IMG/VR virus record: IMGVR_UViG_2663762849_000009
Coordinates: 1-4,614 of that record
DNA: 4,614 nucleotides
Direction: 5' to 3' (one strand)
From: a virus
Lineage: Duplodnaviria; Heunggongvirae; Uroviricota; Caudoviricetes
In this document: positions 1-4,614 of the stretch, piece after piece
How positions within the stretch are numbered: position 1 is the stretch's first letter
Layout of the letters: each line of letters opens with the position of its first letter
The notes under the pieces: model-generated
Seen by the model: only the letters and a program-made list of their open reading frames with translations
What the model was told of the DNA's origin: nothing
The model's database searches: none
Made by a program: the position numbers and the translations under genes

Positions 1-171
1 GGATGAACCACCGGAGCCAGAACCTGAACCACCTCTGCCGGATGAGCCGCCGGAACCCGAGCCGGAGCCACCGCTACCGGATGAACCACCGGAGCCAGAA
101 CCTGAACCACCACCGGAACTGCCGCCGCCTGGGTTACCACCACCGGAACTGCCACCACCTGAGCTACCGCC
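1..171 (-). repeat. Tandemly repetitive Gly/Ser-coding tract inside the J-like CDS
   Basis: The minus-strand translation is almost entirely Gly and Ser (...GGGSSGGGNPGGGSSGGGSGSGSGGSSGSGGSGSGSGGSSGRGGSGSGSGGSS...). Positions 1-33 and 79-111 are an exact 33-nt direct repeat (ggatgaaccaccggagccagaacctgaaccacc). The 15-mer accaccggaactgcc recurs at 108-122 and 144-158. The tract continues beyond the left edge. Confidence 0.75.
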
Positions 172-2403
172 ATCCTCCTTACCATCGGAGAATGCAGGAT
201 CTACAGCAACTGGTTTCCAGTCGGCAGTACAAACTGTATCATCATCGGGATTACAAATAAGAGGATTACCGGTTGCCTCATAAATACACCCCTGCACATT
301 AACATAACGGGTCCCGTCATCACCTTTATAAACATCAGAAAAAGTCATACCATCAAGAACCGGACGAGAAAGACAAATCTCGTCAGTTGGCGGCTTATTA
401 TATTCAGGTGTCAAATCCCCCTCACCACCCTGAAAAGCAAGGGTGCAGGCTGTCCACTTTTGCTTCACCACCCTCGGCGTGTCCCATTTCGCCAGCGCCA
501 GATACTGGCTGTCAGCTGCGCTCACCTCCACCGTCAGGTGCTGCACTGCCGGTGGGATGACGCTGTTCAGGGTGCCTGACTGCGGCTCAAAGCGGGCTCC
601 GTTATCCACAATGGCTTCTTTTTCCGGTACGTGCTGCACCGCCGTGATGGCAAAGGTGCCGTCCGTGTTTTCCCGGATGGCCACACAGCGGAACAGGCGA
701 CGGCGCAGTGACGGCAGGGAGAGTCCCCACACCCCGTATGTCTCCACACCATCAGGCAGGGTACTGACCTGTATCCGGTCCGGCGCGGGGTGTGCGGTGA
801 TGTCCACACTCACCGGCTTACCGCTGCCGTTAATCAGGTTCACCGTCGATGCACCTGTCCCCGGAAGTGTCACTTCACGGTCCAGCGTCAGGGTGCGGGT
901 GGCAGCATCAATGGACAGGACACGTCCGCCGGTCAGGGTTCCGGCATAGTCGTTATCACAGATTTCAATGATGTCGCCGGGTGTGTGACGCAGCCCCTGT
1001 GACCCGAGTGTGAAATCCACCGTCTGCGTTTCCAGCAGTTCTGTCTTTATCACCCACAGCCCGGCACGGTGGGCCTGACCGCGACTGGTGCAGCCGAACG
1101 CATCCATCTTCAGCAGGTTGCGTCCGTAGCGCAGTATGGCTTCCGGGTCTTCCACCAGTTCCGTGGAGGTCTGCCAGCCGTTCTGCGGGTCGGTGTAATT
1201 CACCTCCACCGCCGTGTGCCGGTCCTTCAGGGCACTGAAGCTGTAGCGGAACCCCACGCCGTTATCATCCACCACCACATCGCTGTTGGTGTACGGCCAC
1301 ACCACATCCGACGTGCGGTCCTGAACGAACGTCAGCGTCTGGCCGTTCCATACCGGCATACAGCGCATCGCCGAGCAGAAATCACTGAGAACGTCCCACG
1401 CCTTACGCTGTTGTGCCAGGTACGCATTAAAGGTCATCCGCGGCTCTGTGCCCCCGAAACCATCCGGGACCGTCTGGTCGCAGTACTGCCCGATGGCATA
1501 CAGCGCCCACTTGTCCACATCCGCCGCCCCCAGACGTTTTCCCATCCCGTAGCGCGGGTGAGTCAGCATGTCCCACAGGCACCAGGCCGGGTTGTTGCTG
1601 TATGCCGGTTTCAGACTGCCGTCCCAGATACCGCTGTAGGTGCGTTTTTCCGGGTCATAGTTTGACGGCACCTGGATGATGCGACCGCGGATATGGTAGT
1701 TCACCGTCATCTGCTGACCACCGAACTGCTCCGCATCCACCTGCAGCCCCACAATCGCCGTGTTCGGGTAGCACTGTTTCACATCGATGATTTCGGTGTA
1801 CGATGACCAGAGTGTTCTGTTCTGCAACTGGTCCGTGGTGCTGTCCGCCGTCTCCCGGACCATCCGGATGTTAAAAGGACGGGGAGGCAGATTATCCAGA
1901 ATCACCGACGCCAGAAACTGCGAGGTGGTCTTGCCGTTAATGGTGACATCCTTTTCTGTCACCCAGTTACCGTTACGCTGTAACTGAATCAGCAGGCGGA
2001 CGGATGTCGGGTTTCGGTCACCCTTTGACGTGGTCTGCACCAGTGACTGCACCCCGAAGGTAACCCGCAGGCGGTCAATGTTCGCGGACGTAATGGTGCG
2101 CGTCACCGGTTTTGCCTTCGTCACTTCCACGCCCAGTACAGTTTCAGCTCCGGAGGACTCAAAGCCTTCCGGTGGTGTCTGCTCCTGCTCCCCGGCGCGC
2201 CAGACCGCCGTCACACCGTGTATCACGGGATTACCGTCCGTGTCCGTCAGCGGGGTTTTGTTCACCAGGATACTCTGCAGTCCCTTCACCGGGCCTTCTA
2301 TCGGTCCCTCACCAACCGCATCAATCACGCTCATCATCTGCGTGGATTTGAGATTATCCTTCGCCTCACGAGGCGTGTGTGCCTTACCGCCACCTTTTCC
2401 CAT
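1..2403 (-). CDS. J: Host specificity protein J / central tail fibre (lambda gpJ family), partial: N-terminal 801 codons in window, C-terminus beyond the left edge
   Basis: Hand translation of the minus strand from ATG at 2401-2403 gives MGKGGGKAHTPREAKDNLKSTQMMSVIDAVGEGPIEGPVKG..., which matches my recollection of lambda gpJ (MGKGSSKGHTPREAKDNLKSTQLLSVIDAISEGPIEGPV...). I checked the frame codon by codon from 2403 to 1 and found no stop. A GGAAGG Shine-Dalgarno lies 4 nt upstream (2408-2413, minus strand). J-like similarity continues to about ...HLTVEVSAADSQYLALAKWDTPRVVK (around nt 455-540), then diverges. It is absent from the ORF track probably because its stop lies outside the window. 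Confidence 0.9.
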   Translation of the reverse strand, partial: MGKGGGKAHTPREAKDNLKSTQMMSVIDAVGEGPIEGPVKGLQSILVNKTPLTDTDGNPVIHGVTAVWRAGEQEQTPPEGFESSGAETVLGVEVTKAKPVTRTITSANIDRLRVTFGVQSLVQTTSKGDRNPTSVRLLIQLQRNGNWVTEKDVTINGKTTSQFLASVILDNLPPRPFNIRMVRETADSTTDQLQNRTLWSSYTEIIDVKQCYPNTAIVGLQVDAEQFGGQQMTVNYHIRGRIIQVPSNYDPEKRTYSGIWDGSLKPAYSNNPAWCLWDMLTHPRYGMGKRLGAADVDKWALYAIGQYCDQTVPDGFGGTEPRMTFNAYLAQQRKAWDVLSDFCSAMRCMPVWNGQTLTFVQDRTSDVVWPYTNSDVVVDDNGVGFRYSFSALKDRHTAVEVNYTDPQNGWQTSTELVEDPEAILRYGRNLLKMDAFGCTSRGQAHRAGLWVIKTELLETQTVDFTLGSQGLRHTPGDIIEICDNDYAGTLTGGRVLSIDAATRTLTLDREVTLPGTGASTVNLINGSGKPVSVDITAHPAPDRIQVSTLPDGVETYGVWGLSLPSLRRRLFRCVAIRENTDGTFAITAVQHVPEKEAIVDNGARFEPQSGTLNSVIPPAVQHLTVEVSAADSQYLALAKWDTPRVVKQKWTACTLAFQGGEGDLTPEYNKPPTDEICLSRPVLDGMTFSDVYKGDDGTRYVNVQGCIYEATGNPLICNPDDDTVCTADWKPVAVDPAFSDGKEDGGSSGGGSSGGGNPGGGSSGGGSGSGSGGSSGSGGSGSGSGGSSGRGGSGSGSGGSS

Positions 2404-2743: not shown

Positions 2744-3424
2744 TTACCCCTGCCGCCCGATAACCACGACCTTTCCGCACCCGCCTTCATCACGGGTACT
2801 GATGTCCTGGGATATACGGCGGGAGCCAACCAGCATTTCCCCGTAAGGCACCGGCATCGGGTTACCCTGGGCAATCATGTTGTCCAGTGACGAAAAATAC
2901 GTGTTCTGTCTGCCGTTATCCGTTGCGCGGTAATCCGGTGTTTTTGCCTTCGGGGCCAGCATCTGGGCCACACCACCCAGAATCATGCTGGCCCCCAGTG
3001 AAAACAGCATCGTGGTGGCAGAAAAACCGCCGGCACTCAGGGCTGTACCCCATAACGCCATCGAGGCACCGGCAGTGAGGAAAGAGCCCACGATGGCTGC
3101 CGCCCCCAGCACAATCTGCAGTCCACCCTTTCCGGCCCCGGCCAGTCGCGGCACAATATGGATAACCGTTCCCTCACTCAGTGGTTCGTGAAGGCGGGCA
3201 TACACCGCCTCCGGTGCCGTATCCTCACCGGCAATGCGTATCTGGTACCAGCCTTCGTTCATCTGACGGCGAAAGCCCGGCACCTGCATCGACAGTGCGC
3301 GGATGGCTTCCGCTGCCGTGTTCACATACAGGCTGAGGCGGCGGCCAAATCGTTGTAAATCCCCGTGAAGGCAGATGCGTGCCAGTGGCGGTGACGCCAG
3401 ACAGAATGCGTTCGTCGTTGCCAT
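2744..3424 (-). CDS. I: Tail assembly protein I (lambda gpI family)
   Basis: The 226-aa ORF (MATTNAFCLASPPLARICLHGDLQRFGRRL...TDNGRQNTYFSSLDNMIAQGNPMPVPYGEMLVGSRRISQDISTRDEGGCGKVVVIGRQG) closely resembles my recollection of lambda gpI (223 aa), including the ARICLYGDLQRFGRR and TDNGKQNTYFSSLDNM blocks. Its start overlaps the 3' end of the K reading frame by 103 nt, as in lambda. TAA stop at 2744-2746. Confidence 0.9.
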   Translation of the reverse strand: MATTNAFCLASPPLARICLHGDLQRFGRRLSLYVNTAAEAIRALSMQVPGFRRQMNEGWYQIRIAGEDTAPEAVYARLHEPLSEGTVIHIVPRLAGAGKGGLQIVLGAAAIVGSFLTAGASMALWGTALSAGGFSATTMLFSLGASMILGGVAQMLAPKAKTPDYRATDNGRQNTYFSSLDNMIAQGNPMPVPYGEMLVGSRRISQDISTRDEGGCGKVVVIGRQG

Positions 3425-3798
3425 TTTTCGGAATACCTCTCCCGTTTACTCAGTTGTTCAGGCAGATGGTGAAGCAGCTCACCGTTGCCGCAGTAAATGG
3501 CGGCATGGTTCGGTACCGAAGCACCAAAGCAGCACAGCAGAATATCGCCCGCCTGTGCAGAGGACAGGGGCACCCGGTAAAAGCCCGTTTCCTCCATATT
3601 GTCCAGGTACAGGTTCTGGCCGTTGCGCCACCAGTCATCCTCGCGATGAAAATCCGGCATTTCAGTCCCCGCCAGATGATAAGCATCCCGGAACAGCGTG
3701 TAACAGTCCGTCACCCCGTGCGCAAAGCGCCGTCCGGTCAGGTGCGGCACACAGCGGAATTTGTGAATGTCACCCCGGCAGACCAGCCACCAGGGCAC
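3322..3798 (-). CDS. K: Tail tip assembly protein K (lambda gpK family), C-terminal NlpC/P60-like portion; frame separated from the N-terminal portion
   Basis: Translation (V)PWWLVCRGDIHKFRCVPHLTGRRFAHGVTDCYTLFRDAYHLAGTEMPDFHREDDWWRNGQNLYLDN...LLCCFGASVPNHAAIYCG... matches the gpK C-terminal region as I recall it, with the Cys/His residues expected of an NlpC/P60 peptidase. The track start is a GTG at 3796-3798, preceded two codons upstream by an in-frame TAA, so this is the continuation of K in a different frame rather than an independent gene. Confidence 0.75.
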   Translation of the reverse strand: MPWWLVCRGDIHKFRCVPHLTGRRFAHGVTDCYTLFRDAYHLAGTEMPDFHREDDWWRNGQNLYLDNMEETGFYRVPLSSAQAGDILLCCFGASVPNHAAIYCGNGELLHHLPEQLSKRERYSEKWQRRTHSVWRHRHWHASAFTGIYNDLAAASACM

Positions 3799-4054
3799 TC
3801 TTTATCTGCAGCCGCCGGTCCGCCTCGCTCAGCCAGGGCAGACCACCGGGATGACTGTGGACCAGCGCCACAATCTCCCCCTGCATCTCTGCCCGCAGCC
3901 AGTCTTCCGGCGCAATACGAAAATACGCCTCCGGCTCTGCGGAAATATTCACACAAGGGATATACCGCTCCCCCTCCGGCGTTCTCACCACGAAGCCGCA
4001 CGACTCCGCAGGCGCACACCGCCGGGCATGTGCCAATATATTGCTATAGAGCAT
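3770..4054 (-). CDS. K: Tail tip assembly protein K (lambda gpK family), N-terminal MPN/JAMM domain portion; ends prematurely at TGA 3770-3772
   Basis: Translation MLYSNILAHARRCAPAESCGFVVRTPEGERYIPCVNISAEPEAYFRIAPEDWLRAEMQGEIVALVHSHPGGLPWLSEADRRLQIKS... contains an exact JAMM motif (E...HSHPGGLPWLSEAD, i.e. HxHx7Sx2D). I place the start at ATG 4052-4054, which has an AGGAG Shine-Dalgarno (4061-4065, minus strand), rather than the track's ATG at 4091-4093, which sits inside the terminator hairpin. Confidence 0.75.
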   Translation of the reverse strand: MLYSNILAHARRCAPAESCGFVVRTPEGERYIPCVNISAEPEAYFRIAPEDWLRAEMQGEIVALVHSHPGGLPWLSEADRRLQIKSALVAGLPG

Positions 4055-4066
4055 GAGAACTCCTGA

Positions 4067-4090
4067 TAAAAAACCCAGCCGAGGCTGGGT
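4067..4090 (-). terminator. Intrinsic terminator downstream of the 4109..4531 ORF and immediately upstream of the K ribosome-binding site
   Basis: Inverted repeat acccagc (4073-4079) / gctgggt (4084-4090) with a 4-nt loop. On the minus strand the hairpin is followed by TTTTTTAT (complement of 4066-4073). Confidence 0.6.
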
Positions 4091-4108
4091 CATTTCGTTG
4101 GTAATCTG

Positions 4109-4531
4109 TTAGTAGTGATGCAGTGAAGGCGGCAACTCTTTGCTCTTAAGCCTTACCCATGCGGAAAGATTCGTTGGTCCATCTGGCTCATTAATATCAA
4201 CATCTCGTGTGTGATTGATTAAAACGTCTCTCGCCATTCCAATAACATACGAGAACTCATGGCCGTAGTTGTAGCACCTGTCAGAATAGTTCGATTGAAT
4301 TTGCTTTAGCGCCGGATACAGTTCGCGGAATAATGCCTGTGAGCGGTTGGCATAATCCCATAGCCATACAAGGCTGTTTGCTTCTTTTGCGGAAAGCTCG
4401 TTGGTTTTCTTCTCTTGTTTGCCAATGAACTCACCTTCAAGCACTACCCTGTGGATGTACTCTACGGCCAGCGGGATTTGTTCAATTGAAAGTTCATCAA
4501 TGCTGTCAATACCAAAACGCTGATGAACCAT
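4109..4531 (-). CDS. Hypothetical protein, function unknown (AT-rich moron-like ORF upstream of K)
   Basis: A 140-codon ORF on the same strand as the tail genes. My hand counts of 60-nt stretches give roughly 40-43% GC here against roughly 60% in the J gene. An intrinsic terminator follows it immediately (4067-4090). I recognise no family from the sequence. No obvious Shine-Dalgarno precedes the ATG at 4529-4531. Confidence 0.55.
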
Positions 4532-4555
4532 ATTGTATGCATCGTCATAGCGAAG

Positions 4556-4614
4556 TCATTTCTTTCCTACCAGCATGTTTACTGCATCGCGTAGAGGTGT
4601 GCGTTCAGCTACTG
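4556..4614 (-). CDS. Possible 3' end of an upstream ORF entering from the right edge (last 18 codons, ...VAERTPLRDAVNMLVGKK, then TGA)
   Basis: This is the only minus-strand frame open from the window edge to 4559, and it is the same frame as the 4109..4531 ORF, separated from it by TGA at 4556-4558. Eighteen stop-free codons is weak evidence on its own. Confidence 0.25.
   Translation of the reverse strand, partial: VAERTPLRDAVNMLVGKK

Follow-up and report, generated by a model that had tools for sequence, protein, structure and literature searches.

The tail-assembly protein gpK is needed for assembly of the lambda tail (PMC12617516), and mass spectrometry of lambda virions did not detect it (PMC10721106). 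For its JAB domain, the predicted role is to process the ubiquitin-like part of protein I (PMC1779556). Degenerate forms of TAPK were described by Iyer, Burroughs and Aravind in 2006, who explained them by decay within integrated prophages (PMC1779556). The K locus analysed here resembles lambda gpK/TAPK in gene order (L-(moron)-K-I-J), in its combination of Prok-JAB and NlpC/P60 domains and in retaining all catalytic residues, and it is 85% identical to K of resequenced lambda (the PGAP name for the gpK type being 'C40 family peptidase'). Unlike lambda gpK, it carries a 5-nt deletion at codons 87-89 and encodes no full-length product.

The window (the whole stretch of DNA analysed, 4,614 nt) is the complete public E. 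coli contig CCBY01000498.1 from assembly GCA_000936105.1 and is identical to that record except for the N at 4558. All of its genes lie on the minus strand and constitute the tail-tip part of a lambdoid prophage. The order ant-K-I-J places K where a lambda-type tail module has it, between L and I-J, and L was found upstream of K in a sister contig (L006) and in relatives. The features are:

4109..4614 and beyond, minus strand: 3′ part of ant, an antirepressor-type moron with a P22_AR_C domain, lying between L and K
4054-3322, minus strand: K locus, a lambda-type tail-assembly gene with JAB/MPN and NlpC/P60 domains
3770..4054, minus strand: K N-terminal ORF, 94 aa, native residues 1-88 followed by VAGLPG and TGA
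3322..3798, minus strand: K C-terminal ORF, in the +1 frame, 158 codons from GTG 3798
3770..3798, minus strand: overlap of the two K ORFs, 29 nt, sequence read directly
3791..3797, minus strand: deletion site, with one TGCCC(TG) unit left versus TGCCCTGCCC(TG) in intact alleles, 5 nt missing
2744..3325, minus strand: gene I, 193 aa, Pfam Lambda_tail_I, exact protein WP_044696923.1, with the same annotation in relatives
2404-2743: I-J spacer, 340 nt
466..2403, minus strand: gene J, codons 1 to ~647, with FNIII-A, Phage-tail_3 and the start of an Ig-like domain

Translation bore out the original prediction that K is read in two frames, the 0-frame ending at TGA 3772-3770 and the +1 frame running from 3798. 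The true K start is ATG 4054-4052, which is preceded by AGGAG at a distance of 6 nt and is the start annotated in relatives. An ATG at 4093, which lengthens the mechanically called K ORF, was rejected as a start because it falls within a terminator-like hairpin (4072-4091) and because relatives use the ATG equivalent to 4054. This hairpin (4072-4091, minus strand) has a T-run and directly separates the ant moron from the ribosome-binding site of K.

The K 0-frame reads ...HSHPGGLPWLSEADRRLQIKSALVAGLPG (in longer form ...RRLQIKSALVAGLPG). A tail of ALVAGLPG had been described as out of register; this holds for VAGLPG, but A87 and L88 are still native. The N-terminal fragment contains a complete JAMM motif (E17, H66-S-H68, S76, D79) and matches Pfam Prok-JAB (PF14464, E=3.3e-15) at residues 2-86, which correspond to profile positions 4-93 of 114 only. 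The +1 frame, (V/M)PWWLVCRGDIHKFRC..., extends from GTG 3798-3796 as far as the regular K stop (3324-3322) and encodes native residues 89-245: the last JAB β-hairpin, the linker and the whole NlpC/P60 domain (Pfam NLPC_P60, PF00877, E=5.8e-14) with catalytic residues Cys119, His185 and His197. No second lesion was seen in the translation of this C-terminal ORF (3322-3798), and residues E17, H66, H68, S76, D79, C119, H185 and H197 are invariant across the K alignments. Between them the two ORFs cover intact K completely (245/245 residues, none lost); an uninterrupted ORF of ~245 aa carrying both K domains is absent, the frame shifting after L88. Judged from its sequence, the locus is a K pseudogene rather than a K gene.

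Alignment with intact K genes, the approach suggested originally for finding the exact indel, identified the loss of one 5-nt TGCCC unit. Three intact references were used: TOE17 and LZHX12 (98.7% identical) and EH2252 (96.3%). These read AAGAG-TGCCC-TGCCC-TGG versus AAGAG-TGCCC-TGG in the window (TGCCCTGCCCTGG in all three versus TGCCCTGG), and the remainder of K is colinear, leaving a single gap, where a tandem pentanucleotide of 2.4 copies is one unit short. Of the indels first considered (a 1-nt insertion or a 2- or 5-nt deletion), the three-relative alignment retains the 5-nt deletion and dismisses the other sizes. The frame break at ~3796-3799 is likewise real, but owing to the repeat structure the deletion can be placed only somewhere within 3791-3797.

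The best whole-gene K matches measure 777 nt versus 772 nt in the window, at 98.7% identity, and relatives in complete E. coli genomes show the same gene order, with K annotated as a 245-aa 'C40 family peptidase'. TOE17 and LZHX12 have TGCCCTGCCCTG where the window has TGCCCTG, with no other change. Exactly one TGCCC unit has been lost, as expected from slipped-strand mispairing, of which this kind of loss is a classic outcome. On these alignments, which present one deterministic lesion in a K that is otherwise 98.7% identical, chance is not at issue.

The break had been placed between the MPN/JAMM and NlpC/P60 domains, a position contradicted by the Pfam match, the structural match and a predicted model. 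On intact K, Pfam assigns residues 2-103 to Prok-JAB and 109-222 to NlpC/P60. The only PDB sequence match is the JAB protein 2kks, with an alignment that extends through ALPWWLVCRGE. An AlphaFold2 model was obtained for an intact 245-aa relative, P0191 (25-sequence alignment, mean pLDDT 84.8, pTM 0.77), in which the JAB elements are helix 2-13, strands 19-25 and 28-34, helix 49-58, strand 60-67, helix 77-86 and strands 90-94 and 97-101. These are followed by a linker at 102-118, and the NlpC/P60 domain starts at the helix beginning at 119 that bears Cys119. Foldseek matched the N-terminal domain of the model to JAMM1, Rpn11 and CSN5 and the C-terminal domain to MepS/Spr. In this model the break after L88 falls between helix 77-86 and strands 90-94/97-101, which puts it within the JAB/MPN fold, at its C-terminal edge, and outside the interdomain linker. 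The cut leaves the N-terminal fragment without the last JAB β-hairpin.

Natural proteins consisting of the JAB domain provide a point of comparison. A whole-library HMMER search with the K N-terminal fragment returned JAB proteins of 100-140 aa in large numbers, with identities of 40-55%. Four apparently complete standalone JAB proteins (e.g. P0135, P0146, P0102, P0179) sit at the K position in M-L-JAB-(I-like)-J modules. In three of the four modules a gene follows at the I position, with a weak Lambda_tail_I match in two of the three and none in the third; in the fourth (L022), J follows JAB directly and there is no I gene. NlpC/P60 was absent from the gene after the standalone JAB in the three modules tested. 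Seven standalone JAB proteins continue for 15-25 residues, whereas the window fragment ends before the PW of LPWxIV; it lacks the complete JAB fold with its terminal β-hairpin (strands 90-94 and 97-101 of the model). The JAB-only tail modules of L015-L022, from metagenomes and genomes, have no NlpC/P60 domain beside JAB, and some lineages thus appear able to do without the NlpC/P60 half of K.

The spread of the allele was then considered. The exact 94-aa frameshifted product (P0001) was called on 8 contigs from 7 assemblies, and the junction AAGAGTGCCCTGGTGG is present in all of them (8/8). All of them come from very fragmented draft assemblies in a single contiguous batch of accessions, in which contig numbers reach 2570. 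Their K DNA agrees fully in 7/8, the remaining contig showing four clustered mismatches, while the I gene differs at 9-30 positions and occurs in three different contexts; in 5/8 it is broken and followed by IS66 genes. Finding the same K allele in differing flanks indicates an inherited mutation rather than independent read errors. The window contig itself is imperfect, having the N at 4558, a unique J/inovirus junction and a 1,252-nt overlap with a second contig. In that overlap, CCBY01000498.1 3363-4614 and CCBY01000204.1 (L006) 1734-2985 of the same assembly differ only at the N, reflecting either two deletion-bearing copies of the prophage or a redundant draft assembly.

The two-unit progenitor allele is widespread with otherwise identical 75-nt surroundings: the best place in each of 1,614 records scores 90-95%, and among the matches listed in complete genomes 30/30 score 93.8% (75/80), consistent with a 5-nt gap. 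Across 5,426 complete E. coli genomes, 0 of 3,343 close matches had the single-unit allele. Exact searches with the deletion junction gave no match in GTDB representative genomes (run twice) or in metagenome contigs, and a single match in a viral contig collection, of 4455 nt like L005, which is probably the same contig as L005. An independent carrier of the junction was thus absent from the complete E. coli genomes, GTDB representatives, metagenome contigs and viral contigs.

Taken together, K is very probably an ordinary young pseudogene that arose by slippage loss of one TGCCC unit and was inherited in a few E. coli strains. In the ancestor of this small strain group, replication slippage over TGCCC-TGCCC would have deleted one unit, spanning codons 87-89 of a 245-aa lambda-type K. 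The 5-nt loss shifts the frame after L88 and brings in a stop 6 codons on, yielding a 94-aa fragment in which the JAMM catalytic residues are kept and the last two β-strands of the fold are gone. The remaining 157 residues, in the +1 frame, have no usable ribosome-binding site.

It is unlikely that the strains hold an intact K and that the 5-nt gap was introduced by a short-read assembly and improvement pipeline. The lesion recurs in 8 contigs from 7 assemblies, but all 8/8 come from one batch of highly fragmented drafts, so a pipeline-specific artefact may formally account for it; the junction is absent from the other collections searched, and the window contig contains an N and may be chimeric at one end. 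There is also a precedent in the lambda reference K (199 aa), which is one base off resequenced lambdas and has its JAB domain split. However, short-read and homopolymer errors involve 1-2 nt, not the clean loss of a 5-nt repeat unit, and a de Bruijn assembler copes with a two-copy pentanucleotide. With the junction in 7 assemblies and three I-gene contexts, an identical error would moreover be needed independently each time. A sequencing error at the ccc run, the other explanation offered originally, is disfavoured on the same grounds, a whole 5-nt unit being missing rather than a homopolymer having slipped, in contigs with differing flanks. That K remains functional in split or recoded form, either by +1/-2 ribosomal frameshifting in the 29-nt overlap or by two fragments reassembling non-covalently, the C-terminal one being initiated at GTG 3798 through translational coupling, is very improbable. 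Such a K would be consistent with the absence of codon loss (245 residues encoded by two ORFs), with a C-terminal ORF free of secondary lesions, with the weak stop context at the end of the N-terminal fragment (GGG UGA C) and with the persistence of the allele in several strains. There is accordingly a very slight chance that the deletion made a tolerated two-piece K, in which a JAMM fragment and a C-terminal fragment from GTG 3798 support tail assembly by strand complementation; if true, this would account for the allele persisting in several strains without secondary lesions. Against recoding, direct reading of 3770-3798 revealed no slippery (X XXY YYZ) heptamer, no prfB-like Shine-Dalgarno plus CUU UGA, no Shine-Dalgarno motif or like stimulator 3-10 nt from a shifty stop and no rare-codon pause, and the arrangement is not conserved, in agreement with the initial view that programmed frameshifting is unlikely. 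A shift at the stop codon would also swap residues 89-96 for unrelated ones. Against a split, reading of the sequence before GTG 3798 found no Shine-Dalgarno-like motif at a usable distance, and in the model the cut falls within the JAB β-sheet and not at a domain boundary. The two-frame arrangement was found at 0/3,343 close places in complete genomes and in no diverged homologue among them, no other lineage keeps the split, and the identity of K DNA in 7/8 carrier contigs gives no sign of selection.

A natural two-gene K, in which separate JAB and NlpC/P60 genes are the normal state of a phage lineage, has next to no likelihood. Standalone JAB proteins of 108-115 aa, 37-41% identical, do occur at the K position in M-L-JAB-I-J modules, and NlpC/P60-only versions of K were described by Iyer et al. 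2006 (PMC1779556), who nevertheless call the NlpC-only forms probable degenerate prophage variants (PMC1779556). The JAB-only genes keep the LPWxIV strand and ~10 further residues that are absent from the window fragment, and the next gene at the I position, present in 3/4 modules, never matches NlpC/P60. The nearest relatives (98.7%) have a single 245-aa ORF and differ by exactly one repeat unit; alignment with these intact relatives effectively refutes a natural two-gene origin at the level of sequence. Homologues encoding K as two genes at the same boundary, which would have spoken against the original prediction, were not encountered, JAB-only equivalents ending ~15-25 residues further downstream. 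A natural split of K was accordingly rejected: of the four JAB-only contexts examined, 0/4 share the boundary or have NlpC/P60 as a gene of its own.

Slippage loss of a repeat unit thus remains the preferred origin of the allele. A fragment with an incomplete fold plus an untranslated C-terminal half is expected to give a K-null allele, and we infer that neither K fragment is functional. The prophage is probably unable to supply K and tail-defective, unless another resident lambdoid prophage complements it; complete E. coli genomes with any K-like copy have a median of 2 copies. The original suggestion of true pseudogenisation in a tail-defective prophage is therefore supported as probable, with an unprogrammed frameshift lesion in K. 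We propose to annotate the locus as a frameshifted K pseudogene with a 5-nt repeat-unit deletion and to treat the prophage as probably tail-defective.

The rest of the window was also inspected. Relatives of ant are annotated 'P22AR C-terminal domain-containing protein'. An in-frame TGA at 4556-4558 in ant was considered as a second inactivating mutation and rejected, since the public record has N at 4558 and L006 has G (GGA, Gly). The GTG start of I overlaps the K stop (GTGA), and I is intact in the window contig. In five sister contigs (L005, L007, L008, L009 and L010), similarity to the window ends inside I at ~codon 147 (contig ~1647-1700 onward), and the broken I is followed by IS66-family genes (HTH_Tnp_1, TnpB_IS66, DDE_Tnp_IS66). 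The IS66 break in I adds a second lesion to this prophage lineage.

The receptor-binding C-terminal part of J is missing from the window. From ATG 2403 to the window end the J frame is open for 801 codons, of which those from codon 648 are not J. Window positions 1-465 are 99.6% identical to a g3p-like gene of an inovirus prophage in E. coli 100416 (L012), which encodes Pfam Phage_Coat_A (the filamentous-phage coat protein A family) and a Gly/Ser linker and has Zot, secretin and replication endonuclease genes as neighbours in L012. J and the g3p-like gene are joined in frame at 463-465, with microhomology of 3 nt (CTT) only, and the junction was not found in complete genomes, viral contigs or metagenome contigs. 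The join is either a real illegitimate recombination or the mark of a chimeric contig. Read-level checks are needed for such features of the window contig, e.g. the N-derived ant stop and the unique J/inovirus junction. The prophage is thus decaying outside K as well, with IS66 in I in five sister contigs and, if the contig is correct, J cut at codon 647.

Conservation of the I-J spacer extends to 1,649 of the 5,426 complete E. coli genomes, and no annotation covers it in 11 of the 12 matches listed; in TOE17 and cM8a, sodC occupies its position. Its plus strand, which is antisense to the tail genes, contains a promoter-like site close to consensus (TTCACA-16-TATAAT, 2609-2636) together with two hairpins resembling terminators (2506-2537 and 2712-2728), and the fold z-score is only -1.6. 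The spacer could encode a ~90-nt transcript or be a moron remnant. The prophage anti-sRNAs AgvB/AsxR were considered for it and rejected, as they map to the PR' moron site and not to the I-J gap; no part of the window matched Rfam at E<=1.

Other broken K alleles are common in protein databases (P0032, P0033, P0037, P0038, P0041). Outside annotation, the significance of the present lesion is small. Its value is as a clean, datable case of incipient lambdoid prophage decay in E. coli, with one slippage event in a K that is otherwise undamaged.

Among known systems, prfB-type programmed +1 frameshifting is similar in that a +1 frame change is needed shortly before a UGA stop. In contrast to the prfB type, the window lacks a CUU-UGA shifty stop with Shine-Dalgarno and lacks conservation, and the mutational origin of its frame change is directly identifiable. 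Natural JAB-only equivalents of K share the JAMM motif and the K position with the window fragment, but differ from it in having complete folds of 108-115 aa and no NlpC/P60 adjoining the JAB gene.

The lambda reference K (J02459/NC_001416, 199 aa) is similar in showing an apparent frameshift within the JAB domain, but differs in that it involves a 1-nt change at ~codon 46 and not a repeat-unit deletion. In the NC_001416 record (14129-14419; L013 ~1130-1280), the first ~46 JAB codons (MTQTESAILAHARRCAPAESCGF...) lie in another frame, hence the 199-aa K. Most resequenced lambdas and close relatives are one base longer, with 292 nt versus 291 nt (PV340536.1, LC730321.1, KT232076.1, DE3, HK629/630), and their K is 247 aa, as in PV340536.1; two recent lambda records, OR474059.1 and OR974322.1, agree with the reference. 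The 1982 lambda sequence probably has a 1-nt error or a stock variant in K. The degenerate TAPK of Iyer, Burroughs and Aravind 2006 (PMC1779556) is likewise a prophage K in which the integrity of one peptidase domain has been lost. Compared with those forms (PMC1779556), the window keeps both halves of K and is altered by a frameshift only, consistent with an earlier stage of decay.
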